Positions 12,790 through 56,436 of a DNA stretch of 64,000 bases are shown piece by piece. The DNA comes from a virus. Below the pieces are notes generated by a model that saw only the letters and a list, made by a program, of their open reading frames with translations, searched no databases and was not told where the DNA came from. The stretch is taken from IMG/VR virus record IMGVR_UViG_3300013093_000020, one strand, 5' to 3'. How positions within the stretch are numbered: the stretch's first letter is position 1; every line of letters starts with the position of its first letter. A program made the position numbers and the translations under genes.

Positions 12790-14205
12790 TTATAAGTCGT
12801 CGCTAGGTAGATTGTTTAGAAGTTCTCTTAATTTTGAACTTTCAACTGTGGCCTTGACCTTAGGTACATGGGATCCTTCTGACGGATCATCTTGTACGGT
12901 TGAGCGTTGTTTGATCTGAGCCAATAAAGTTGAGCCGGCACTTTGACTTGCAGAGTTACCATAGCCGTCCTCTTCGGCTAGATCAGTTATTCTCAAACTA
13001 TCAATATTAAAATCCAAATCAATCTTTTGTCCAACCCCGCTTGAACTACGAGTTTTCATTAGCTGAATTTGATAGCGTCCACGCTCACGCATAGCACGAC
13101 TTGTAAAAATACCAAACACATTGTCTGCTGTTTGAATCTTACTCAGGCCTCCTGAGATATGACTATGATCAAATTCAACTTCTTCTACAGCACCACGATT
13201 TAACTGTGCCGCAGTTACAAACACACAGTTCTTTTCTACTGCCAAATTACGCAATTCTTCCGAAACATATTTGTCTTTAATAAACAAATCTGCTGGACTA
13301 ATTTTCTTACTTTGCGGCATTAGCAAGTCCAAGTAGTCTACTAATAGTACATCTACTTTACGATTTGTCTTAATTTCATATTCTTTAAGATAGCTTCGTA
13401 AGTCATTTGCGGTCTTCCCAGACGGCATATACTTGACTTGGTAACTTCCTGATTTTTTCCCAATTACTCTGACCTTCATTTCTACTTCGTCTAGATTTTT
13501 AAAAATCTCACGAGTAGCCATACCTGTTACCATGGCATCCATACGCATTGATACAAGTTCTTCACTGAGCTCTAATGTTAAGTAGACTACATTAAGCCCT
13601 GCCAACGCCCAGTTTATGCCCAAATTAGCCAAGAACAAGGATTTACCTGCTCCTGATCCGCCAGCAAAAATGTTAAGTTCTCCACGGTTCATTCCTCCGA
13701 ACAATTTGTCATCAACGCTCTTCCATCCAGTTGATACTTGCCCGTTATTGTCCTTGATCTTCATAAGTCTAGCACGGGGATCTAACCAGTAATCTGTACC
13801 TAGATCTTTCTGCAATCCTACTTGTATCGCTCGTTTAATTTTATCCTCAACACTTCCGTATTCGCCCTTTTCAAGCATGTCAGCTGCTTCTAAGATAGCT
13901 CTCTCGAGGCCTTTGTGACGAGTAAATGTTTCAAAATCATTTAATAGCCAGTCAAAGTGCTCTTCTCGAAGATCTTGCGGAACTTTAAATGTCTGACCTG
14001 TTGCGGCATTTACGATTTCTTCTGTAGGCACAACATTATGGTCTTCTACATATTTGTTGATAAATTCTGCCGCAGTTTGTAGTCTGCGATCAAACAGAGT
14101 CGAATCAAAAATACTTTGACAGCGAGCAAATGTTGCGGCATCAGCCAACATCATTTCTAAATAAACTTTTTGTATATCGTATCCGTATTCTGTATTTTGT
14201 GTCAT
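12790..14205 (-). CDS. gp41: DnaB-like replicative helicase (T4 gp41-like)
   Basis: Walker A GGSGAGKS, TLEL, LLVDYLDL, TAAQLNR, TAD, KTR motifs. Confidence 0.95.
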   Translation of the reverse strand: MTQNTEYGYDIQKVYLEMMLADAATFARCQSIFDSTLFDRRLQTAAEFINKYVEDHNVVPTEEIVNAATGQTFKVPQDLREEHFDWLLNDFETFTRHKGLERAILEAADMLEKGEYGSVEDKIKRAIQVGLQKDLGTDYWLDPRARLMKIKDNNGQVSTGWKSVDDKLFGGMNRGELNIFAGGSGAGKSLFLANLGINWALAGLNVVYLTLELSEELVSMRMDAMVTGMATREIFKNLDEVEMKVRVIGKKSGSYQVKYMPSGKTANDLRSYLKEYEIKTNRKVDVLLVDYLDLLMPQSKKISPADLFIKDKYVSEELRNLAVEKNCVFVTAAQLNRGAVEEVEFDHSHISGGLSKIQTADNVFGIFTSRAMRERGRYQIQLMKTRSSSGVGQKIDLDFNIDSLRITDLAEEDGYGNSASQSAGSTLLAQIKQRSTVQDDPSEGSHVPKVKATVESSKLRELLNNLPSDDL

Positions 14206-14221
14206 TCTATTATTATACTTG

Positions 14222-15694
14222 TTAATTAAAAACTTTCACACCGTAATGGCGTTCAAAGTTTCTTGCATCAATATGGTCATTTACCATAGGCTGACCTTTT
14301 ATATTAAGACTTGTGTTCAGTAGCATAGGGCATCCGGTCCTAGCATACCAGATTTCTAAGAGTTCTCTAAAAGGTCCCCCATCTTTTGGAATAGTCTGTA
14401 CGCGACTAGTTCCATCACGATGCACGATAGCAGGATAAAGATCAGGATGCCTACAACGAGCGATGACCTGCATATACCTACTATTATCCCAACCGCGAGG
14501 CATATCAAAATACATATCAGTAAGCTCTTCGAGTATAGCTGGAGCAAAGGGTCTAAATTCTTGTCGTTGTTTGATTGCATTTACTTTATCCTTTATGTCA
14601 TCACCGCGTGGATCTGCTATTAAACTTCTATTGCCTAATGCTCTTGGACCAAATTCAGCACGACCTCTAGCCAAGCCGCAAATTTGATTTTGTGTAATAT
14701 ATTCTACAATTTCTTCATTAGAAGAACGATAACCCATGTCATAGCCTAAGAAATTATTCGACCAATCGGTATAGTCTTTCCAATGCGGATTGTGTGCTAA
14801 TACTGTTCCTATAGCACTACCAGCATCGCCCGGGTTAGGGTAAATCCACGTTTTACCGTAGTATTCTCCGGTCAATCTATTGGCACTACAATTCAAGGCA
14901 CAGCCACCCATTAGAACTAAATTGTCGCTGTCTACCATTAGTCTTGCCTTGACCAATATCTCATCAAGCCACTCTTCATATATACGCTGAACCGAAGCTG
15001 CAATGTCAAAACTATCTTTGATTATTAACTCGGGTGCCCAATCCATACAACCCCTATGAAGGTTTCTTTTCATTTTGAAACTGTCATAACGCCCTTTAAA
15101 GAAATCTTCATACATACGACCAATATGTTTATCGGCATCACCGTATGCGGCCATACCCATTAAAATATATTCGTCCTCATTAGGTTTCAATCCTATTCGC
15201 TGTGTCATAGCACTATAGAATAATCCCATGCTGTATGGGTAAGATTTACTAAATCGTTTCTTTAGTTTAGTTCCCTTTCCTTCCCAAATAGTAAATGTTT
15301 CGAATTCACCAATAGCATCTATTACTACAACACACGCATCATTGAATCCACTTGTATAGTATCCACCGGCGGCATGACTGAGATGATGGTCGGTATAGAT
15401 AATGGGCGCATTAATTTCATACCTAGCCATGTAAATATCGATATCATTATCACGGGCTTTCCAACCTTGTCCTGCCCACCATTGACGTATAGTTTTCTTA
15501 AAAGGCTTTTCGTACCAATATACACGGTCGGGATGGCCAAATCGTTTAGCATCCGCTACGATTTCTCTACACAAATCTCTGTCATTTTTATTACCGCTAT
15601 AACGCTCGCTATGACTGGCAAAAGCTAGTTTTTCGTCAGCAAATACTGCCAATGCCGCATCGTGGCTATTTGCACTTATTCCCCAACTGATCAT
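14222..15694 (-). CDS. Carbamoyltransferase (NodU/CmcH family)
   Basis: HDAA, ERY, HHLSHA, DAIGE, MGMAAYG, GGCALN, GDAGSAIG, EFGPRALGNRS, RPFAP, LLNTSLN motifs. Confidence 0.95.
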   Translation of the reverse strand: MISWGISANSHDAALAVFADEKLAFASHSERYSGNKNDRDLCREIVADAKRFGHPDRVYWYEKPFKKTIRQWWAGQGWKARDNDIDIYMARYEINAPIIYTDHHLSHAAGGYYTSGFNDACVVVIDAIGEFETFTIWEGKGTKLKKRFSKSYPYSMGLFYSAMTQRIGLKPNEDEYILMGMAAYGDADKHIGRMYEDFFKGRYDSFKMKRNLHRGCMDWAPELIIKDSFDIAASVQRIYEEWLDEILVKARLMVDSDNLVLMGGCALNCSANRLTGEYYGKTWIYPNPGDAGSAIGTVLAHNPHWKDYTDWSNNFLGYDMGYRSSNEEIVEYITQNQICGLARGRAEFGPRALGNRSLIADPRGDDIKDKVNAIKQRQEFRPFAPAILEELTDMYFDMPRGWDNSRYMQVIARCRHPDLYPAIVHRDGTSRVQTIPKDGGPFRELLEIWYARTGCPMLLNTSLNIKGQPMVNDHIDARNFERHYGVKVFN

Positions 15695-15804
15695 TTATAG
15701 ATAAACGGATCTCTCTTCCGTAGTTCCTCTAATTTTCTTTTAAATGCAAGATGTTCCTGCCATCGACGCCACGGATATAAAAAAATGTCAAATATTCGTT
15801 TCAT
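15691..15804 (-). CDS. 37-aa micro-protein MKRIFDIFLYPWRRWQEHLAFKRKLEELRKRDPFIYK (not in the ORF track)
   Basis: Start overlaps the primase 3' end; stop forms ATGA with the carbamoyltransferase start; fills the gap exactly. Confidence 0.75.
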   Translation of the reverse strand: MKRIFDIFLYPWRRWQEHLAFKRKLEELRKRDPFIYK

Positions 15805-16795
15805 ATTGTTTAAACCATTGTTTTGCATGCAATCTAATCTTCAACGCATTTTTTTCTTTGCTATTGATAATTAGCCATAGTGTAGCTAACCTTCCTAATT
15901 TTTTCACAGCATCATTGATGTCTTTAACATTCTCAGGCCATTCTGGCATGCTAACTGACCATCCAAATTCTATTGCCTGTTCTACTGTTTTTTCACCTGC
16001 TTCGTCACGATCGGGTACTAGTATAATTTCTCTGTGCAGCTGTTTTAACAACCAATTTTGGCTATCCTTAATTTCACTGCCTAACAATGCACAGCCATCT
16101 ATACTGATAGCATCAAACGGACCTTCGCTAACGATCACAAATGTCCGGTCGTGTGTTTGACAATCGAGATTAAACACATATCCTGGTTGTTGTTCGCTGA
16201 TATATTTAGGTTTAGCATCACCAACTGCCCTGGCAGTATATCCTACAACTATGCCATCTTTATAAAAGGGTACAATAATTCTGTTACTAAACCCTAGCTG
16301 CTTAGTCCAGTAAAAAGGATAATCATGTATACCAAGTCCTCTATCAGTAATATATTTTACTGCATAGTGAAGCCCGTCTGGTATCGAATAACCATCGTCA
16401 GTTAATTTTAAAAAGGTGGCCCACTCGTCAAAACTACGACTACCGGGCGGTAATTCTCTAGCATTAAATTTTGGAATTATATCTATAGTTTGGTCTGACC
16501 CGGAATCACTAAGCCTAAGTGCTTCAATTCCAAGTTTATTGATCACATCATCTGGCATGTTAAGGTCGCGCATAAATTTACGCATCTTTTGACTAAGTGC
16601 TCTGCCAGGTTGCCAGCTTGCTTTAAATCCACAATTAAAGCAATGATAACTAACAGCATCACCTGCATTGAATATTAATCCGCCACGTTGTCTTTGATCA
16701 TCACAGCATACAGCATCAAAACTTATCCAGCCGCTCGGAGTTTTTTTACGCTTACTAGGTAAGAAGTTTAGAATAGTATCCGTGATTAGGCTCAT
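15788..16795 (-). CDS. gp61: DNA primase (T4 gp61-like)
   Basis: N-terminal Zn ribbon (CC..YHCFNCG), RIIVPF, KY, TOPRIM EGPFDA, DRDEAG, KDINDA. Confidence 0.92.
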   Translation of the reverse strand: MSLITDTILNFLPSKRKKTPSGWISFDAVCCDDQRQRGGLIFNAGDAVSYHCFNCGFKASWQPGRALSQKMRKFMRDLNMPDDVINKLGIEALRLSDSGSDQTIDIIPKFNARELPPGSRSFDEWATFLKLTDDGYSIPDGLHYAVKYITDRGLGIHDYPFYWTKQLGFSNRIIVPFYKDGIVVGYTARAVGDAKPKYISEQQPGYVFNLDCQTHDRTFVIVSEGPFDAISIDGCALLGSEIKDSQNWLLKQLHREIILVPDRDEAGEKTVEQAIEFGWSVSMPEWPENVKDINDAVKKLGRLATLWLIINSKEKNALKIRLHAKQWFKQYETNI

Positions 16796-17918: not shown

Positions 17919-18293
17919 ATGGCAAAACTAAGAGAAGACGTAGAACAAAATTTACCCTATATTTCTGTGCTTAACTACGGTAGCGAAGAATATGTAGGTA
18001 TCATAATCAATCAAGATCAGTATGTAACTAGTTTCTACGATCTAAATTCCTTCCGCACTACAGAAGAAAAAGCTAAGTTTTTAGAAATAGGCGAAATATG
18101 GTGGTGGGAATCAAATCGTCAATTTCCTATTAATATCTTTTGTAGAAATCAAATAGGACCATATGCTTATGCTATTAAAACATTCAATAGTAAAGATGTG
18201 CGTGTTATACTAGGGCCTGTAGTTAATTTGATGAATCTAACAATGAAGCGTGTTAAACGCAAAAGTGTACAACTGGTGAGAAAACCTCGTTAA
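17919..18293 (+). CDS. Hypothetical protein (124 aa)
   Basis: Intact ORF between - strand genes, TATAAATA on + at 17871-17878, WWWESNR motif. Confidence 0.75.
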   Translation: MAKLREDVEQNLPYISVLNYGSEEYVGIIINQDQYVTSFYDLNSFRTTEEKAKFLEIGEIWWWESNRQFPINIFCRNQIGPYAYAIKTFNSKDVRVILGPVVNLMNLTMKRVKRKSVQLVRKPR

Positions 18294-18868
18294 CTATATT
18301 CATAACTAATCGCTTCGCATATTTGATTCATTTGCACAATAATAACATGTGCATAGGCAATAGCATGTGCCTTTTTAAAATAATATTCATCACCTTCTGG
18401 TTTCGTCCACACTTCTTTCATTACTGTAGTCCAGTCGTTCCCAATCAAATAGCGTTTCGCCGGTCTTATCATAGCTAGGACCGCAGCTAATTGTTCCACG
18501 GAAGTAGGGCAAGTCTTCCTCAGAATATCCCCGTGCCCGTTTAAATGAAATAACAGATTCACAAATTCGTCTTGCAATAGTAGATCCCATAATGGCTCCC
18601 TGTTCATTAATTCGTTTAAATGTTCTTTACTTTTTATATTTTCATATACACTTACATTCAAAAAATCTACCTTAAAATATCCCCTATCCTCTGCAGACTT
18701 GTAGTCAATAGTACTAATATTTGTAAACGGATCGTGCGGAACATCAGTACAGTATACTCCGGAATTATGTTTTTTAAAAACGCCATTTTCTTCAATGGCT
18801 GCTGTGACATGTTTAATCACCCTGAGCGCCTTTGATCTATCTGCAAAGTCGATATCGATATCTGGCAT
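18290..18868 (-). CDS. dnaE: Minimal DNA polymerase III alpha-like (C-family) catalytic core, 192 aa
   Basis: PDIDIDF, HNSGV, GYFKVDFL, LAMIRP and YFKKAHAIAYA match DnaE PDxDxDF, HAAGV, GLxKxDFLG, ALYRP and FNKSHAxAY in the correct order. Confidence 0.85.
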   Translation of the reverse strand: MPDIDIDFADRSKALRVIKHVTAAIEENGVFKKHNSGVYCTDVPHDPFTNISTIDYKSAEDRGYFKVDFLNVSVYENIKSKEHLNELMNREPLWDLLLQDEFVNLLFHLNGHGDILRKTCPTSVEQLAAVLAMIRPAKRYLIGNDWTTVMKEVWTKPEGDEYYFKKAHAIAYAHVIIVQMNQICEAISYEYS

Positions 18869-19563
18869 TATATATTTGATTCCCTAACTATCTGTTTAAC
18901 AAAGTCTATATCGGCTGGCAGACTTCGAAACTTTTTTAACCAAAATGGTATATCCATGACCACACTAATTGCACTTAGTTGTTCATCACTAAATTTTTTG
19001 ACCATGTCCTTGCCACTTGTACAGTTTAAAACTAGCCACGGACTTACTTTGCCATCTCTGATATCAAATGTAGCTCGACTTAAACTAACATAAAGAAAAT
19101 AATGATTCCATTGTGCTTGGTGTTCTTCAGCCCATGCCATCATATGATTTATCGTTCGTTGTAACGCCACTTCTACTGGTTCTTTTTTAATTAAATCTAC
19201 TACATACTTGTCGTATAATTCTTCCCTACACCAATGATCTAATTTAACTCCGCTAGTGACCACATAGTCAATAAATCTGTCCGGATACAAGGGATTGACA
19301 TTAGAAACGAAACTACCAAACTTAACAAAAGCATTATAGTAAGGACTTTTACTAAACTCGTCATAGGTTTTATCTCCATTAGTATTTTTTTGAAGATGTT
19401 TATAAAATCGGTTAAATGCATCAAATGCTAAAACCACATGTTTCTCACTTTTAGATAAAGCTCTACGCTTCTGTTCACATACATGGACAAACAGAGTTTT
19501 TTCTCTAGTGAATTTGTGATTGCAAAATTCACAAACGAATGGTTGTTCTACTAAAGACATCAT
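18868..19563 (-). CDS. Hypothetical protein with an N-terminal Zn finger
   Basis: CEFC-x12-HVC; translationally coupled to both neighbours. Confidence 0.75.
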   Translation of the reverse strand: MMSLVEQPFVCEFCNHKFTREKTLFVHVCEQKRRALSKSEKHVVLAFDAFNRFYKHLQKNTNGDKTYDEFSKSPYYNAFVKFGSFVSNVNPLYPDRFIDYVVTSGVKLDHWCREELYDKYVVDLIKKEPVEVALQRTINHMMAWAEEHQAQWNHYFLYVSLSRATFDIRDGKVSPWLVLNCTSGKDMVKKFSDEQLSAISVVMDIPFWLKKFRSLPADIDFVKQIVRESNI

Positions 19564-20036
19564 TTTAATTTCTTAGCGATTGTTGCCTCATCCCAGCCAT
19601 ATTGCCTTGCTAGATCTTTTACTTCTTTATCCGTACTCATCTTAGCCAGTAATTCCAATTCTTGATCACACAAGTCTGGCCTAAATTCTGCTAATAATTT
19701 CTCTTTCTTTGTGCCACCAGCTTCGCGTTTTTTACCAATCCATTCATGATAGAACTTTTTCTTGCCATCATAACTACACATACACAACAATATCCATAGC
19801 AATTTAGGATGCTTACTCAATGAGCTCCAATTTTTATTGAAATACTCATTAACTGATAATACAAAATGCTCTTGTATTTCAGTACTTTCCCCTTTGGCAT
19901 TACTGATGTATCTATTTAATATAAAAAATTCGTTCTTAAGACTCTTCTGTTGCTCCGGATCCATAGCGTCCCATAGTTCTCGCACATTTTGATCCACAGC
20001 AAGAATTTTTTCTTTAAGTTCTATTTTTTCACTCAT
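19560..20036 (-). CDS. Putative clamp-loader small subunit (T4 gp62-like)
   Basis: FFILNRYIS..VNE..N....KKFYHEWI pattern resembles gp62; replication-cluster context. Confidence 0.5.
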   Translation of the reverse strand: MSEKIELKEKILAVDQNVRELWDAMDPEQQKSLKNEFFILNRYISNAKGESTEIQEHFVLSVNEYFNKNWSSLSKHPKLLWILLCMCSYDGKKKFYHEWIGKKREAGGTKKEKLLAEFRPDLCDQELELLAKMSTDKEVKDLARQYGWDEATIAKKLK

Positions 20037-20655
20037 CTTTAGGCCTCAATACTGCATCAAATGCCATTACTGTTCTAGTACCTTCGCCTTCCCATGGATA
20101 TACTGTATGCGGTAAGTAACTAGGAAATAATACTATTGTGCCCACCTGCGGTGTATATTTCATAGTATCGTTCATTATAAACTTAGTCACATCTTTAGAT
20201 TGAGGCATACGGAATAACAGTTGGCTATCTGATTTTGCAGAATTGGGCGAAAGATCAGGCGACTTGATATACATATTTCCGCTAATATTACCGCCGGGGT
20301 GATTATGCATTTCTTGATAATCTCCGGCTGTTTGTTGAATAGTCCAAATGCTAGTTACTACTGGTTTGCAATATTTTAATTCCTCGGCGCCACTTTGTTG
20401 AGTAACAATTTCCATGTATCCTTTGCAACATTCTTCTAAGTAATCTACCAACCATTTTACATCTAGATTTAATTCATTCGGATATACTTGTATCTGTTGT
20501 CCCCCACGAATGCTTAGTTGCGGATTACCTTCGTCATTTAATTCGGGATGCAAATGTAGATTTTCTGTTAATGAATAAATCTGGCTGAATGTAATAGGCG
20601 GAATATTATCTATAGCCATAATTACAGGCTGGAAGTAAGCAACCTTAATTGTCAT
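20029..20655 (-). CDS. Putative 2OG-Fe(II) oxygenase (TIGR02466-like)
   Basis: HNH..ISG..Y, LFPSYLPHTVYP, RTVMAFD. Confidence 0.85.
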   Translation of the reverse strand: MTIKVAYFQPVIMAIDNIPPITFSQIYSLTENLHLHPELNDEGNPQLSIRGGQQIQVYPNELNLDVKWLVDYLEECCKGYMEIVTQQSGAEELKYCKPVVTSIWTIQQTAGDYQEMHNHPGGNISGNMYIKSPDLSPNSAKSDSQLLFRMPQSKDVTKFIMNDTMKYTPQVGTIVLFPSYLPHTVYPWEGEGTRTVMAFDAVLRPKDE

Positions 20656-20944
20656 TGTATTTTTCCTTACTTAATTTGTATATCATTATAGCACGGTCTA
20701 ATGCTCGTTGTAAAGTCACATTGACCTTTGCTTCTCTCCGAATATTGCCCCATAATTGATCTTCTCTCATATGATCAATCAACGGGCGTCCGTCAGTTGT
20801 GCGGGGATCAAAGTTAGGATCATCTATCTTATAATCCCAACCTATGGCATGTCTAGTACTAGGATCTGATCCAAATTCCCTAGCATAAGTCACGCCGTCG
20901 GCCCTCTCATAGATATATTTGACACCTGGTTTGAGACTTCCCAT
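20645..20944 (-). CDS. Hypothetical protein (99 aa)
   Basis: Coupled ORF within the operon. Confidence 0.75.
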   Translation of the reverse strand: MGSLKPGVKYIYERADGVTYAREFGSDPSTRHAIGWDYKIDDPNFDPRTTDGRPLIDHMREDQLWGNIRREAKVNVTLQRALDRAIMIYKLSKEKYNDN

Positions 20945-21450
20945 TACAATATCTTATCCAACTGAATAATTTCGCTCTGTCTAGAAATTTCTTTGACAAA
21001 GTACACACAATTTGGTTTTTCTCCGTCTTCGGTTGGTACTGCTAACAGTTGTCCATTTTTCATCTTCGGGAAATACCATTTGACATCGTTATAAAAATTT
21101 ACAATTTCAATTTTCTTAAATTCCATTCTGAATGAACTTAGTGGATTAAAACATAATGCTTCAAATCCTCGATCATTTAGACTGGTCAATGGCAAAATTT
21201 CAATGTCACTTGACGAGCTCGAATCGCCAACTGCAATACACCAATCAATTGGCATTGTGACTTCGTCATTACCGATGCGTAATACCATTGCAGGAGAATT
21301 AAAACTTTCTAAAAATATCAATGGCATGAAAAAAAAATCAGGTTCTTTAGGCTCGCTGTTATCTAAAACTGCGAATCTTGTATTTTCATCTACTTCATCT
21401 GGTAAATCATTCAATGAGAATGTTTTGTTATCTAATGTTAATATTTTCAT
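20944..21450 (-). CDS. Hypothetical protein (168 aa)
   Basis: Coupled ORF downstream of uvsW. Confidence 0.8.
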   Translation of the reverse strand: MKILTLDNKTFSLNDLPDEVDENTRFAVLDNSEPKEPDFFFMPLIFLESFNSPAMVLRIGNDEVTMPIDWCIAVGDSSSSSDIEILPLTSLNDRGFEALCFNPLSSFRMEFKKIEIVNFYNDVKWYFPKMKNGQLLAVPTEDGEKPNCVYFVKEISRQSEIIQLDKIL

Positions 21451-21453
21451 CTC

Positions 21454-22920
21454 TTATTTTTGCCAGTCTACTTTTTCTAAAGTAAACGGATATTTGGCAT
21501 CCTTGTAAAATTTTTTCCTCGTTGTGAGGTGGCGCTTGGCAAATTTACAAGTCGAAGTTAGATCCCAGATTTGTACGAAGTCTTTGTCTTCGGCTCTTCT
21601 AATACCGCGTCCAATAGATTGGATAACGCGGACAAAGCTCTTTCCGGGTTCCAGAAGAACCAAATTAAAGATCCGAGGAATATTAATACCAACAGCAGCT
21701 ACACCATAAGTCGCCACAGTAATTTTATTGTCACTGGTTGCATGTTCCTTATATTCTTCTTTTCTCTTTGTTCCCTTAACTTCGCCTGAAATAAACACAG
21801 CGTCGTCTATCATTTCTGTTAATAATTTGCCTGTATCGATCCTATTAACTAGGATCAGTGTATTGCCTGAATCCGCTAAGCCTTTGACTAATCTACTAAT
21901 ATATGCCACTCTATCTTTGTTTGTAACGAGATACTTTAATTCGTCTTGGTACGATTTAAATTCTGGTAAATCTATCATTTGTAACACATTTACATGAAGA
22001 TTACTAAGGATACCCATCTCTTGTAGTTCATGTGCTTTGATACCACCAACCACCGGGCCAATACTGGCAAAGATAGGTTGAGCTTCAAAATCTTCCTTAG
22101 GTACTGTACCAGTTAATCCCCAACGAATAGGTGCATTACACATATTTTGTGTAAGTAAATTTTTTAATACTTCTGCTTTGGCCATGTGTACTTCGTCAAC
22201 AATGACAGTTTGTACCCCATCTAAAAATTCGGCAAGTGTTAATATTTCTTGTTCAGAATTTTTAGATTTTTTGTCTAAAATATTAAGACTCTGCCAAGTA
22301 CAAATTGTGTGTGTTTTGTTTAGATCTTTTCGATCACCATAGTAAACACCAACATCCAACCCAACATTAGTATAGTCTTCTTCTGTCTGCGTTACTAGAT
22401 CTTTGTTAGGCACAATTACAATAGTGCGACCATATTTTTCAGCACAGTGACTCAATGTAGCTGTCATAATGGTCTTACCTGCTCCGGTTGCTACTTCTTG
22501 TAGACTCTGTGTGTTAGTGAAAAACCTATTAACTACTTCGACTTGATCGTCACGCAAAGTGATAGGTTGTCCAGCAAACCTATGCCCCTCAGGCCATACC
22601 TTACCTTGATCGGCCCAATATGTATTGGTTATCGGCTCGAAGTGGATTTTACTGGTTTTTCTATGATCATCTAATTCATCTACATCAATGCCCATACTGG
22701 CTAGTATCTCAAGGCACTTTTCTAATTGGCTCAAATAACCATTACCACCGAGACCAAACATACTGACCTTTCCATCCCAACGGCCTAGTTTGTATGCCGG
22801 TCTGTATCTTGCTGTCGGATCCTCATATTTGAAGGTGTTGGCTAATTTCTTGCGAGCATCTAGTGGCAAGTTTTCAAATTTAATATTAACTTCGTCTTTA
22901 ATAACTAATCTTATTGCCAT
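21454..22920 (-). CDS. uvsW: SF2 DNA helicase UvsW
   Basis: WDGK, LRDDQ, ATGAGKT, DEVH, GLTGT, GINIP, QSIGRGIR. Confidence 0.93.
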   Translation of the reverse strand: MAIRLVIKDEVNIKFENLPLDARKKLANTFKYEDPTARYRPAYKLGRWDGKVSMFGLGGNGYLSQLEKCLEILASMGIDVDELDDHRKTSKIHFEPITNTYWADQGKVWPEGHRFAGQPITLRDDQVEVVNRFFTNTQSLQEVATGAGKTIMTATLSHCAEKYGRTIVIVPNKDLVTQTEEDYTNVGLDVGVYYGDRKDLNKTHTICTWQSLNILDKKSKNSEQEILTLAEFLDGVQTVIVDEVHMAKAEVLKNLLTQNMCNAPIRWGLTGTVPKEDFEAQPIFASIGPVVGGIKAHELQEMGILSNLHVNVLQMIDLPEFKSYQDELKYLVTNKDRVAYISRLVKGLADSGNTLILVNRIDTGKLLTEMIDDAVFISGEVKGTKRKEEYKEHATSDNKITVATYGVAAVGINIPRIFNLVLLEPGKSFVRVIQSIGRGIRRAEDKDFVQIWDLTSTCKFAKRHLTTRKKFYKDAKYPFTLEKVDWQK

Positions 22921-36394: not shown

Positions 36395-39300
36395 TTAAGC
36401 CGTTCCGGTAGCCGCCGCAGCACCTAGTGCTTTGATCGCGCCAGTGTTCTCTAAACGGATTGGAATGTAGATGAATTCTGCGGCTTTAACCGGTTCAATG
36501 GCAACATCCAAATATAACTCACTAGCGTCAATGACTGCTGGTGGATTGTTGGTTGTGTCACAAACTGTGATAAAGTCATATAATGCTCGTTGACTTACTA
36601 ATTCAAGCAATAGTGTATCAGCATGGCCTTTTAGCTCATTGCGAGTAATAGTATCGTTTGGTTCAAACACATATGGTTTAGCCAATGTAGCAAACAAACG
36701 ACGTAGATATATTACTAAACGAGCAACATTAATACGATCTAATGCACTAGCAACTAACTGTCTAGTGTACTGTCCGTATGCAACTAGGCCAACACCTGCA
36801 AGGTATGTAATTGGATTTACATGAACTGATGCTAGTGTATCGCGTTGTCCAGTATTTAGAGATACTGCTTGGAATTCTCCAGTAGCATCAACATATCCTG
36901 CCGATGTTGCATTAGTGATAATGCCACGACGTGTTCCTGCTGGTGCATACCATGGATAGCTAACTTGATCGCTCAGTGCTATTGTGCGTAGCATCATGTG
37001 ACTTGGTGGAACAACGATGTTATTGCCTAGGTTATCTGTAGCATAACCCCATGGATAGTACACACCTAAATTAGAACTTGTTGTTAGCAATCCTTTTTCG
37101 CCGTCTGATGCTGCATTAGCCGCATTACTACCCCATGCATATAATGATGTTGCATCTGGTGTTAGTCTTGCAGGAGCATCTGCTACTACAAAACAATCCT
37201 GTCCGCGATCAGTTGATAAACTAACTAGATCTGGGATAAGTTCAGTGTATCCAGGTGCGGCAAGTAGATTAATGGTCAATGATTCTTCGTCTCTCATTGC
37301 TTGACTGCTTTCTATTAGAGCTTTCATGGCAGTAACAACAATTTGTCGTTGTGAATGACGACCAAACGAACCAGAACCATCTGCTTGATTAGCTGATGCT
37401 GTAACCCAACGATCGCTGAAATAATTAGTCATTAATTCTTGATTGTTGTAATTAGGATTACGGCTATTTGGATTAATATAATTTCTTACATATTTTTTAA
37501 CATTAAAACTAGAACGGCGTGTATTCCATAACAACATACCTTTTGGATATAGTGTTGGACTTGGGCAATCAAAATCAACAAAGTTACTTATCAACAAGGC
37601 TTGTATAGTATCTGGAGTGCCAGTTGCATTTGCACCAGTTACAGTCCAGCGAGCATCTGCAAAAATTATACCATTTGGTGATGTGTGATCTGCATTATTA
37701 ACAGCTACCCAAACTTTACTTAGATAATTCCACTTGTATAGCTTAGGGAAATGTTCTAAGTCGCTGCTGTCAATCCACAAATCACCATTTTGTAATTGAG
37801 AACCATTGCTCTGTGTAGTTGGTTGAGTAGCACTGATAATAGGTCCATTAGCATCTGTTCTTTGTGATGCATTGCTATTGTAATATGGACTAGTTGAGGT
37901 CAAATATCCAACCCACTTAGTTCCGTCGTTGATCATAATATCAACATCGGTAGTAGAACTATCATACCATAAAGTATTTGTTGCTGGAACTGTTGTTGGT
38001 GCAGTTTCACTAGGAGTAGCTAAACCACTTCCGGCAACTTGGTATTGCCATAGTGTTGCAACAAAGCGTCCTGTTGTACCGCTATAGGCATTATAAAAGT
38101 TTGTTGCTGTGCCTGGAACAAATAACTTAGTAATTGGTGTATTTGTACCGTCGATGAAATAAATTTCACCACCTTGCATGTGTGTTAGTGTAATGCTATT
38201 GTTAGAATTAACTTGCACACTTATATTTGTGCCAACTGGTAGTTGGGCACTTATAGCTGCAGCTAATGTGTTAGCGTCGGCACTTGTTCCTGCGGCAGTA
38301 AACGATACAGTTGTTGAGTTAACAAGATTGCTATTACCAGCAGCTGATTCGCTGATAGTAAATGTATTAGTGCCAGAAGTTAGTGTGCTAGATCCAATTA
38401 TAGAACTAGTTGTGATAGTTGGACCAGCCGTCAATCTTTCAAAAATTGTAAAATCTGCTATAGCAGGGCTGGCATCAAATGTATTATATTTCACATAGAT
38501 AGCACCTGCAGCAAGATTGATACCGCCACCTGTTGGATCTAAAGCTGCTAAAGCACTTTGATTATTAGCATATAAATTTGTTACTAGCGTGGTCCATTGG
38601 CTAGTAGAAGCTGAATATTTATTGACAAAATAATTAGCACCGGCATTGGGGCTAGTTGTCTTAACCCAAATACTACCTGTTGGAGCCCCACCTACAGTTG
38701 ATGAAAGGGTCGCTGCATCGTAAACAGGTACACTAGTATGTGGACTGATCGTCAATTCTGGAGCTATATATGTACCTGCTGTAACACCCATAGTAGATAA
38801 TGGAGTTCCATTACTATTAGCTAATGCAACGCTAACGCCAGTTGAATAAATTTGTAAGAAGCCACCTACAACAGCTGCTGAAATACCAGCCGTGGTTAAT
38901 GTTGAATTACCATTAATTGCTGTAGCTAAAGTAGTTAAAGACAGCCCTGTAGTTACTGCTGTCGAATTAACTGTAATAACATCAGTATTTAAAAATGTAA
39001 CACTACCTGATGCGATAGTGCTAGTAACTGTTGGCCAACTAGCAGCCCAAGCAGGAGTTCCTACTTCAACCCAAGTTCCAGCTGCAGTATTTGTCGCTGG
39101 TTTTTTATACCATAATGTATTAGCACTTGTTACAGATACTATTGCATAATCACCGATGGCACCATAACTTGTTACTGGTGCATACTTGTTCGACACCAAC
39201 ACAGTGTATGCTGAATTTGTAATAACTTTTAAATTGTTAGCAGTTTGTTGATTGTAAAATGATTGTCCACCTGACAGTGCTGATCCAGCCTGCCATTGGA

Positions 39301-39739
39301 ATACACCCCATTGTGTGTTGGCAGTATTAAGCCATAATGTACCATCTGCAGGAGGGCCTGCTGGAGATGTGCCACTTGGTGCCAATGCATCTAAATCAAT
39401 GTCTGCACGAACAACATACGCACGATTGCTTACACCTAACAAACTGTATGCTGCTTGCAGTCCGTATTCATTAATTTCGCTAGCATGAATAGGATTATTT
39501 TCTGCGTCAACTTGGAACATGGGTGTTCCAAATGTATCTGATAAATCTTTTTGGCTAGTTAGTAGGTAAACTTTGCCTGCGTTTGATTTCAGTGTGCCCG
39601 GTGCGATCGTGCCCGCAGCATTGGTTTTATCTTGTGCTGAAGCAACAACAACTAGAGGTACTGTTCCAGGTGCTCCTGGTACATAAAAACTTTCATCTAT
39701 AACTGTTACGCTTACACCTGGTGAATTTAATGTGGCCAT
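36395..39739 (-). CDS. gp18: Contractile tail sheath protein (T4 gp18-like) with a large central insertion
   Basis: SPGVSVTVIDES N-terminus; YYPW, VPPS, PWYAPAGTRRG, NPI, LDRINVARL, FEPND, PVKAAEFIYI; TATAAATA at 39771-39778. Confidence 0.95.
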   Translation of the reverse strand: MATLNSPGVSVTVIDESFYVPGAPGTVPLVVVASAQDKTNAAGTIAPGTLKSNAGKVYLLTSQKDLSDTFGTPMFQVDAENNPIHASEINEYGLQAAYSLLGVSNRAYVVRADIDLDALAPSGTSPAGPPADGTLWLNTANTQWGVFQWQAGSALSGGQSFYNQQTANNLKVITNSAYTVLVSNKYAPVTSYGAIGDYAIVSVTSANTLWYKKPATNTAAGTWVEVGTPAWAASWPTVTSTIASGSVTFLNTDVITVNSTAVTTGLSLTTLATAINGNSTLTTAGISAAVVGGFLQIYSTGVSVALANSNGTPLSTMGVTAGTYIAPELTISPHTSVPVYDAATLSSTVGGAPTGSIWVKTTSPNAGANYFVNKYSASTSQWTTLVTNLYANNQSALAALDPTGGGINLAAGAIYVKYNTFDASPAIADFTIFERLTAGPTITTSSIIGSSTLTSGTNTFTISESAAGNSNLVNSTTVSFTAAGTSADANTLAAAISAQLPVGTNISVQVNSNNSITLTHMQGGEIYFIDGTNTPITKLFVPGTATNFYNAYSGTTGRFVATLWQYQVAGSGLATPSETAPTTVPATNTLWYDSSTTDVDIMINDGTKWVGYLTSTSPYYNSNASQRTDANGPIISATQPTTQSNGSQLQNGDLWIDSSDLEHFPKLYKWNYLSKVWVAVNNADHTSPNGIIFADARWTVTGANATGTPDTIQALLISNFVDFDCPSPTLYPKGMLLWNTRRSSFNVKKYVRNYINPNSRNPNYNNQELMTNYFSDRWVTASANQADGSGSFGRHSQRQIVVTAMKALIESSQAMRDEESLTINLLAAPGYTELIPDLVSLSTDRGQDCFVVADAPARLTPDATSLYAWGSNAANAASDGEKGLLTTSSNLGVYYPWGYATDNLGNNIVVPPSHMMLRTIALSDQVSYPWYAPAGTRRGIITNATSAGYVDATGEFQAVSLNTGQRDTLASVHVNPITYLAGVGLVAYGQYTRQLVASALDRINVARLVIYLRRLFATLAKPYVFEPNDTITRNELKGHADTLLLELVSQRALYDFITVCDTTNNPPAVIDASELYLDVAIEPVKAAEFIYIPIRLENTGAIKALGAAAATGTA

Positions 39740-54921: not shown

Positions 54922-56436
54922 ATGAAAGTGAATCGAGTCAAAGAAATTTGTATTGTAGGAGGCGGAACTGCTGGCTGGCTTACAGCGGCATTTATCAAGC
55001 GTAATTTGCCCATGATAAATTTAACCTTAATTGAAAGCCCAAATATTCCTACTGTAGGAGTTGGCGAAGCAACCATATTAAACTTTGATAAATTTTTAAA
55101 ATCATGTGGATTTGAAAAAGCAGAATGGATGCAGGCTGCAGATGCTGTATACAAGGCCGGTATTTTTAGTCCTAATTGGCGAGGAAACGACATTAATATT
55201 TGGCATCAATTTAGTCAGACTCCCAAGCAAGATCACTTTACCACAGCAGTTGACCTATTTTACAACACAGATTTCAGTGATGAATCATACTATCAACTAG
55301 CGCAGATGGACTATGATACTTGCGTATTGCACAACAAAATCCCCAATGCCGATCAGATGGCCTTTCACCTAGATGCTGTAAAACTTGCTAACTGGGTTAG
55401 TTCAAAAGTTGCACCCCACATTAAACATTATCAAGAAAATGTTGAAAATGTCGTAGTTGAGGACGGTGTAATATCTAAGATATTTGTCACTAATCTCGGC
55501 GAAGTCACAGCAGATTTGTTTATCGATTGTACTGGATTTAAACGATTGTTGTCTGGAGCCCTTCCTGGCAGTGAGTATGTTAATAAATCTTACTGCTTAC
55601 CTAATAATGCGGCCATTGCAACTCCTGTAGAATATGAAAATCCTGAAACAGAAATGAAACCTTATACCACTGCTCAGGCCATGGAACATGGTTGGATGTG
55701 GAAAACTCCGATTCAGACAAGAATAGGCAGTGGATTGGTCTACAACAGAGATTTGCTTGACGAGCAAGGCGCTATTGATTTGTTTGTACAACACTGGGGA
55801 GAAAAGCGTTTAAAGACTGGTGTTTTTAATCGTATCAAATGGGAACCAGAATACAATGCTTGCAATTGGCGTGGCAATGTTGTTAGTATAGGACTGGCTA
55901 GTGGATTTTTAGAACCCTTAGAAAGTACTGGCCTCGCACTAATCACCGACGGTGTTGTCCTATTGCACAACATGATATCTAAATTATTTTACACACAGAC
56001 CGAACGAGATATTTTTAATAATAGACTAGAACTGTTATACGACGATGCCACTGATTTTGTGGGGCTACATTATATGAATAATCAAAGATCGAGTGTATAC
56101 TGGGATCAAGTCCGTGCTAATTGGCGCCCTAGCGAAACTCTGCAAATGAAAATAGATCTTCATCAGGAAGATCTAACAAGACCTCAAAGCACAAATGATT
56201 ATTTAATATTCGGTCATCACAGCTGGAACATCTGGTTACACAGTGTCGGTATCAAAGGTAAACCGACGCCTATACACACTCCTGTGGTAAAAGACATGTT
56301 GATTAATTTCTATTTAAAACATAACAAGTATCAGCACACTAAATGTCCAACAAATTATGAGATTATGATGCAAAATAAGGAAACTATTCTTCACAAACAG
56401 TTTCCTTATGAGCTTGCTAGCGGATTAAAAGTTTAA
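54922..56436 (+). CDS. Flavin-dependent tryptophan halogenase family (PrnA-like) protein
   Basis: IVGGGTAGW, VGVGEAT, catalytic-Lys region VYKAGI, AFHLDA, FIDCTGF, GWMWKTP, GFLEPLESTG. Confidence 0.92.
   Translation: MKVNRVKEICIVGGGTAGWLTAAFIKRNLPMINLTLIESPNIPTVGVGEATILNFDKFLKSCGFEKAEWMQAADAVYKAGIFSPNWRGNDINIWHQFSQTPKQDHFTTAVDLFYNTDFSDESYYQLAQMDYDTCVLHNKIPNADQMAFHLDAVKLANWVSSKVAPHIKHYQENVENVVVEDGVISKIFVTNLGEVTADLFIDCTGFKRLLSGALPGSEYVNKSYCLPNNAAIATPVEYENPETEMKPYTTAQAMEHGWMWKTPIQTRIGSGLVYNRDLLDEQGAIDLFVQHWGEKRLKTGVFNRIKWEPEYNACNWRGNVVSIGLASGFLEPLESTGLALITDGVVLLHNMISKLFYTQTERDIFNNRLELLYDDATDFVGLHYMNNQRSSVYWDQVRANWRPSETLQMKIDLHQEDLTRPQSTNDYLIFGHHSWNIWLHSVGIKGKPTPIHTPVVKDMLINFYLKHNKYQHTKCPTNYEIMMQNKETILHKQFPYELASGLKV

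Follow-up and report, generated by a model that had tools for sequence, protein, structure and literature searches.

A short DnaE-like gene in a T4-type replication module

The 64-kb window analysed here, the whole of a stretch of DNA from an uncultured giant T4-like lake phage (IMG/VR record IMGVR_UViG_3300013093_000020), contains an intact 192-aa open reading frame at 18290..18868 on the minus strand that carries the catalytic motifs of the bacterial replicase DnaE, and it raises the question whether so short a protein is part of a polymerase, an enzyme put to another use, or a remnant. The comparisons below make it quite probable that the frame encodes the C-terminal unit (hereafter the C-unit) of a phage-specific minimal two-gene Pol III alpha, a C-family polymerase of the group 2.2 (T4-related) jumbo phages. 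The gene and its relevant neighbours are as follows.

18290..18868, minus strand: C-unit (Mg2+/template-binding) of the probable split minimal Pol III alpha; second palm half with D3/D5 and K66/D68, and cut-down fingers with RP135-136 and FKKAH164-168
18868..19563, minus strand: p231, a 231-aa protein in which one classical C2H2(C) zinc finger (aa 6-28) precedes a confidently predicted two-part all-alpha body; TAATG-coupled, conserved next to the C-unit within this phage clade
19560..20036, minus strand: p158, a 158-aa conserved neighbour; no Pfam family, a weak match to PHROG 11758 (no known function), homologues in Paride and Phosso
20944..21450, minus strand: p168, 168 aa, directly downstream of UvsW; PHROG 11279, no known function
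17919..18293, plus strand: p124, 124 aa, convergent; PHROG 11637, no known function; tail-to-tail overlap with the C-unit gene; found at the equivalent place in Phosso, Paride and 121Q
21454..22920, minus strand: UvsW-type helicase, bounding the conserved module on its upstream side; 47-50% identical to the helicases annotated in Paride and 121Q
15788..16795, minus strand: DnaG/gp61-type primase (context)
12790..14205, minus strand: DnaB/gp41-type replicative helicase (context)

The product starts MPDIDIDF, and its motifs follow one another in the order in which they occur in DnaE: PDIDIDF at residues 2-8, HNSGV at 34-38, KVDFL at 66-70, IRPAK at 134-138 and FKKAHAIAY at 164-172. The gene closes a tightly packed run of minus-strand genes that is opened by the UvsW-type helicase gene. 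Its ATG lies in a TAATG at 18866-18870 and shares one base with the stop codon of the p231 gene, a start/stop overlap from which we take the two genes to be coupled, and its 3′ end overlaps the convergent gene by 4 nt. The initial annotation had listed these motifs as all present and in order within an intact, coupled reading frame, without giving the strand; the translation of the frame and the TAATG overlap bear this out, and the strand is minus.

The surroundings are those of a T4-type phage, with genes for DnaB, primase, UvsW, UvsY, UvsX, gp32 and terminase in the window, and Phosso, Paride and 121Q share the gene order UvsW – p168 – (p158) – p231 – C-unit – convergent p124 – structural gene – primase – DnaB. 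In 121Q a DnaQ-like exonuclease adjoins UvsW; the window encodes no equivalent. Two genes look like lineage-specific insertions, since neither has a tblastn match in the corresponding loci of Phosso, Paride and 121Q. One is a 2OG-Fe(II) oxygenase gene (20029..20655, minus strand; PF13759, E 6e-21) lying inside the otherwise conserved segment from UvsW to the mini-DnaE gene, and the other is a 490-aa frame (14222..15694, minus strand), carbamoyltransferase-like by eye, located between primase and DnaB, two genes that directly neighbour each other in those three phages. Elsewhere in the window we note a gene of the tryptophan halogenase family (54922..56436, plus strand; PF04820, E 1.4e-92) among genes for tail-fibre-like glycine-rich proteins, and a very long tail-sheath protein of 1,114 aa (36395..39739, minus strand) in which the match to the sheath C-terminal domain is confined to the last 100 residues; tail-sheath proteins of such length are typical of giant myoviruses.

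Relationship to known C-family polymerases

The C-unit matches PHROG 11778, annotated as 'DNA polymerase', over residues 3-186 of its 192 (E 4.5e-69), and its match to PHROG 405 (DnaE, 1,190 positions) is weaker. It misses the gathering score of the Pfam family DNA_pol3_alpha (PF07733), scoring 12.3 bits against a cut-off of 23.9 with residues 1-24 alone aligned. When the single sequence was searched against the PDB, colinear pieces aligned with M. tuberculosis DnaE1, and a profile built from 85 diverse representatives found E. coli Pol III alpha (2HNH) at E 4e-6. The profile alignment places K66 and D68 on K553 and D555 of E. coli alpha, R135-P136 on R639-P640, and FKKAH on FNKSH at 756-760; D3 and D5 correspond to D401 and D403.

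A protein of this description has been published. From genome comparisons, Iyer, Anantharaman, Krishnan, Burroughs and Aravind (2021, Viruses 13:63; PMC7824862, sections 3.4.1 and 3.5) described a 'minimal split Pol III alpha' whose N- and C-units are encoded by distant genes in the group 2.2 jumbo phages, phages that also have a family B polymerase. To judge from its alignments, the window gene is a well-conserved member of this already published family, which is present in PHROGs (C-unit, PHROG 11778; N-unit, PHROG 11127): as in the systems described in those sections, it is a stand-alone form of about 190 aa that starts at PDxDxD and is located in a T4-related replication module. Compared with the family as set out there we see nothing essential that differs; the window copy belongs to an uncultured phage of fresh water, and its identity to the copies of cultured phages does not exceed 55%. 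What the present analysis adds to the account in those sections is a rare unsplit form of 375 aa, a list of invariant residues, and a structural mapping onto alpha residues 403-781. We found no bench or biochemical test of any split minimal Pol III alpha in the literature searched.

Conservation and selection

The C-unit gene is found by tblastn in 96 phage records, and with the exception of one 94-kb record the matches listed are jumbo phages of 280-490 kb, including Phosso, Atu_ph07, and PA5oct-like and RaK2/121Q-like phages. Identity to the copies in Phosso, Atu_ph07 and the PA5oct-like and 121Q-like phages is 42-55%, and none of the matches listed exceeds 55%. Metagenomic relatives are more numerous, with more than 546 in IMG/VR (the nearest 83% identical) and 433 matching cluster representatives in a search of 1.8 billion proteins, where most of the full-length ones listed are 185-215 aa long. 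All 81 copies that were extracted (80 relatives and the window's own) are intact, with lengths of 186-193 aa. D3, D5, K66, D68, R135 and P136 are invariant among the 85 diverse representatives, which span 29-61% identity, and the opening M1-P2-D3 is invariant in the 26 closest relatives that were aligned.

Codon comparisons across the homologues, a check that the initial annotation had proposed, gave dN values of 0.15-0.28 with saturated dS, and a dN/dS of about 0.1 where it could be estimated, a figure that is rough because of the saturation; four outlier pairs in the set were mis-extracted frames. There is no sign of decay, and at the level of these codon comparisons the C-unit is shown to be under purifying selection.

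A separate feature of the gene is a nested open reading frame on the same strand, at 18390..18590 in frame +2, which runs for 66 codons from an ATG and 78 from stop to stop. In synonymous resamples of the C-unit gene the longest open stretch averaged 30 ± 10 codons, and only 0.1% of them reached 78. Of 80 IMG/VR relatives, 78 keep the nested frame open over 58 codons or more; it usually starts MG(S/F)T there and contains a conserved ...TLSDWERLDY... stretch.

Structure of the C-unit and the parts of DnaE that it has lost

An AlphaFold2 model of the C-unit has a mean pLDDT of 78, with residues 71-190 placed at high confidence and the palm half, residues 1-70, at moderate confidence only (pLDDT 50-70). 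DnaE structures rank first in a Foldseek search with this model, albeit weakly (E 0.023). The best 15 matches in VIA-align are all C-family polymerases, either DnaE or PolC, with Z scores of 5.4-8.3, after which the scores fall to 3.4, and model residues 3-190 map onto E. coli alpha residues 403-781 (Z up to 8.3). Taken by itself the modelled C-unit forms an incomplete palm.

The features held in common with bacterial DnaE/Pol III alpha (E. coli 2HNH; M. tuberculosis DnaE1, 5LEW) and with PolC (3F2B) are the Pol-beta-type palm with three catalytic Asp residues, the K-x-D motif, the RPG and FNKSH motifs of the fingers, their colinear order, and a similar fold. The differences are of size and content, the C-unit having about 190 aa where the bacterial enzymes have 1,100-1,400, and lacking the PHP domain, the thumb, some 90 residues of the fingers, the beta-clamp motif, and the HhH, OB and tau-binding parts. 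Everything before DnaE residue 401 and past about residue 781 is missing. The internal reductions are seen in the spacing of the conserved residues: D5 and K66 are 61 residues apart compared to 150 in E. coli, from which we deduce the loss of the thumb, with a loop of about 16 residues in its place; and R135 and F164 are separated by 29 residues compared to 117, which points to a partial loss of the fingers by a deletion of about 90 residues. The N-terminal half of the palm, which in bacterial DnaE is part of the same chain, is a separate protein in the split phage form.

The N-unit, the family B polymerase and a natural fusion

A PF07733 search of Phosso, Paride and 121Q revealed one further above-threshold locus in each genome, a 169-180-aa frame ending ...GVGRGSSVASY...DEFL(N/K). 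Three IMG/VR relatives of 223-300 kb, with C-units 69-76% identical to that of the window, each encode a 168-aa counterpart that ends ...KYNLDWQDFLR and is located more than 160 kb from the C-unit gene. An N-unit at a distant locus is thus present in all six large relatives examined. It belongs to PHROG 11127, is about 170 aa long, carries the GRGS motif, and matches PF07733 positions 13-97; the point at which the protein is split lies exactly between DnaE 'FERFL' and 'PDIDIDF'. Neither a motif search (GRGS and variants) nor tblastn with three N-units located one within the 64-kb window, and its presence in the window's own phage is accordingly deduced from the relatives.

A family B polymerase was found in four of the five relatives checked, namely in two of the three IMG/VR genomes (about 890 aa in each), in 121Q and in Paride; the contig of one relative is 300 kb in length with 83% completeness. 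None was seen among those frames of the window that a general scan covered. In having a distant N-unit gene and an accompanying family B polymerase, the close relatives of the window gene resemble the systems reported in the sections of PMC7824862 cited above.

The two halves also occur in one chain. Three unsplit metagenomic proteins, P0118 (375 aa) from the search of cluster representatives and P0151 and P0152 (376 aa) from a follow-up search, are encoded on ENA/Logan contigs of 2.4-5.9 kb. Residues 79-180 of P0118 match the N-unit (E 1e-19) through GVGRGSS...KEFIK, and residues 189-370 match the window's C-unit (E 4e-36) from ADFDID onwards, with a linker of about 8 residues between the parts. 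The three proteins are 78-100% identical to each other, and on this basis represent one small lineage; the fused form has no close relative in IMG/VR. A natural fusion counts as 'Rosetta stone' evidence for joint action of its halves, and this rare one supports a functional pairing of N-unit and C-unit, as far as sequence can indicate it.

These results settle the two parts of an earlier suggestion differently. The proposal of a split C-family polymerase with a partner encoded elsewhere in the genome fits best, in agreement with the distant N-unit genes and with the fusions, and the accompanying idea that the adjacent frames might be the partners is not supported, these having no similarity to DnaE.

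Cyanobacterial DnaE offers a parallel, as it too is a C-family polymerase made from two distant genes (DnaE-n and DnaE-c). The cyanobacterial halves are split by an intein and are joined by protein trans-splicing. The phage halves, in contrast, have no room for an intein, the N-unit ending at ...DFLR and the C-unit starting at MPDIDIDF, and from this we infer that their assembly must be non-covalent.

The neighbouring genes

The protein encoded immediately upstream of the C-unit, p231, contains a single finger of the eukaryotic C2H2 style (PxxCxxCxxxFxxExxLxxHxC; matched by profile to designed and PRDM9-type fingers at E 1.7e-8), which is the only part of it to match anything in a sequence search of the PDB and which suggests that p231 may bind nucleic acid. 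The model of p231 has a pLDDT of 91.5 and an all-alpha body, for which Foldseek returned no hit at E ≤ 0.001; the best VIA match, to helical bundles like the AAA+ lid, has a Z of 5.1. We therefore rejected p231 as a piece of DnaE, since neither sequence nor structure searches show any similarity. The initial annotation had named p231 and p158 as possible partners, and for neither is it supported that it is a missing DnaE piece: p231 consists of the finger and a helical body, and p158 has no Pfam hit. The description of p158 as gp62-like is likewise without backing in Pfam or PHROGs, its one match being the weak one to PHROG 11758.

p231 is widespread: 93 records of phages from this clade have it, compared to 96 with the C-unit, and its metagenomic relatives are extremely abundant, numbering 5,614 cluster representatives at an E of 1e-5 or below. 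Among 80 IMG/VR loci scanned, p231 is directly coupled upstream of the C-unit in 25 and another gene occupies that position in nine; the remaining loci yielded no called upstream frame longer than 150 aa that ends where the C-unit starts, several of these loci having cut flanks. 121Q, Phosso and several IMG/VR relatives have inserted genes that separate p231 from the C-unit.

A comparison of p231 with the T4 helicase loader gp59 (PF08993/PF08994; PDB 1C1K) gave nothing in Pfam and an hhalign probability of 0.6%, and 1C1K aligned with the p231 model at Z 3.6 with an rmsd of 12.4 over 165 residues. In a BFVD search, 'helicase loader' models appeared at ranks 5 and 10, with probabilities of 0.5 and 0.3. 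The gp59 families of Pfam have no hit anywhere in the genomes of five relatives. That p231 might be a divergent gp59-like helicase loader is a weak lead from these model comparisons.

How the split polymerase might work, and alternative explanations

In the arrangement we favour, the C-unit supplies the half of a Pol-beta-type palm that holds the metal-binding Asp residues, where one strand bears D3 and D5 and a second bears D68, together with shortened fingers, and the N-unit contributes the other palm half with the GRGS motif for binding the nucleotide triphosphate. The N-unit ends, at ...KYNLDWQDFLR, exactly where DnaE would run on into ...PDIDIDF, and non-covalent assembly of the two would be expected to complete one active site. 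The assembled pair could then carry out templated DNA synthesis, with DNA binding that could be poor or altered because the thumb and much of the fingers have been lost. Its role would plausibly be that of an auxiliary polymerase beside the family B replicase of the phage, in repair, in primer extension, or in the synthesis of one strand.

The shortness of the gene could instead be read as decay, the frame being what is left of a once full-length phage or host dnaE, which would account for a product six times shorter than DnaE and for a PF07733 score below threshold. This is exceedingly improbable given the near-constant length of the 81 intact copies and of most of the full-length proteins listed among the 433 representatives, the invariant catalytic residues, the low dN/dS, and the coupling of the start to the upstream gene. 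The earlier argument that retention of the motifs speaks against a pseudogene is upheld by the intact homologues and the three invariant Asp residues, and on these comparisons a pseudogene is excluded. A functional protein need not be a templated polymerase, and we have considered whether the N+C pair, or the C-unit alone, could be a repurposed nucleotidyltransferase of the Pol-beta superfamily, which might add tails or make a signalling nucleotide, or an inactive decoy directed against the host replisome. Such a role, which would be consistent with the absence of the thumb, clamp-binding and OB modules required for processive replication, with the family B replicase already present in the phage clade, and with the incomplete palm of the C-unit modelled alone, is nonetheless very unlikely in our view. 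The segment retained outside the palm is the fingers, with the RPG and FNKSH motifs of replicative DnaE invariant or nearly so, the module lies between the primase-helicase and recombination genes, and the invariance of the metal-binding Asp residues argues against a decoy.

A further explanation extends the two-gene polymerase rather than replacing it, and holds that the mini Pol III is larger and has several subunits, p231, p158, p168 and the convergent p124 standing in for the lost thumb, DNA-binding or clamp-binding functions. The module order kept in Phosso, Paride and 121Q speaks for it, as do the TAATG coupling of p231 here and its place directly upstream in 25 of the 80 loci, the nearly equal numbers of phage records with p231 and with the C-unit, and the nucleic-acid binding suggested by the zinc finger. 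However, the genes inserted between p231 and the C-unit in several phages weaken the case, co-distribution may merely reflect genes that belong to the shared core of the clade, and the structure of p231 is unlike any part of DnaE, and we consider such an enzyme unlikely. Returning to the two-unit polymerase itself, a bolder proposal is that the N+C pair, about 360 aa in all, is the smallest functional C-family DNA polymerase and forms the core of a machine with p231, p158, p168 and p124, dedicated to one defined task at the fork beside the family B enzyme. Candidate tasks for such a machine at a T4-type fork would be primer extension, lagging-strand synthesis or recombination-dependent synthesis. 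We put this forward as speculation, and think it rather unlikely.

If that proposal were true, the rare unsplit form of 375 aa would be a ready-made single-chain version of the smallest C-family polymerase. A working two-chain enzyme of about 360 residues would show how small the catalytic core of the bacterial replicase type can be, and a working mini Pol III would, following the sections of Iyer et al. (2021; PMC7824862) cited above, model the ancestral state of that type. If the pair is active, many abundant giant phages of lakes and guts would run two unrelated polymerase families side by side.
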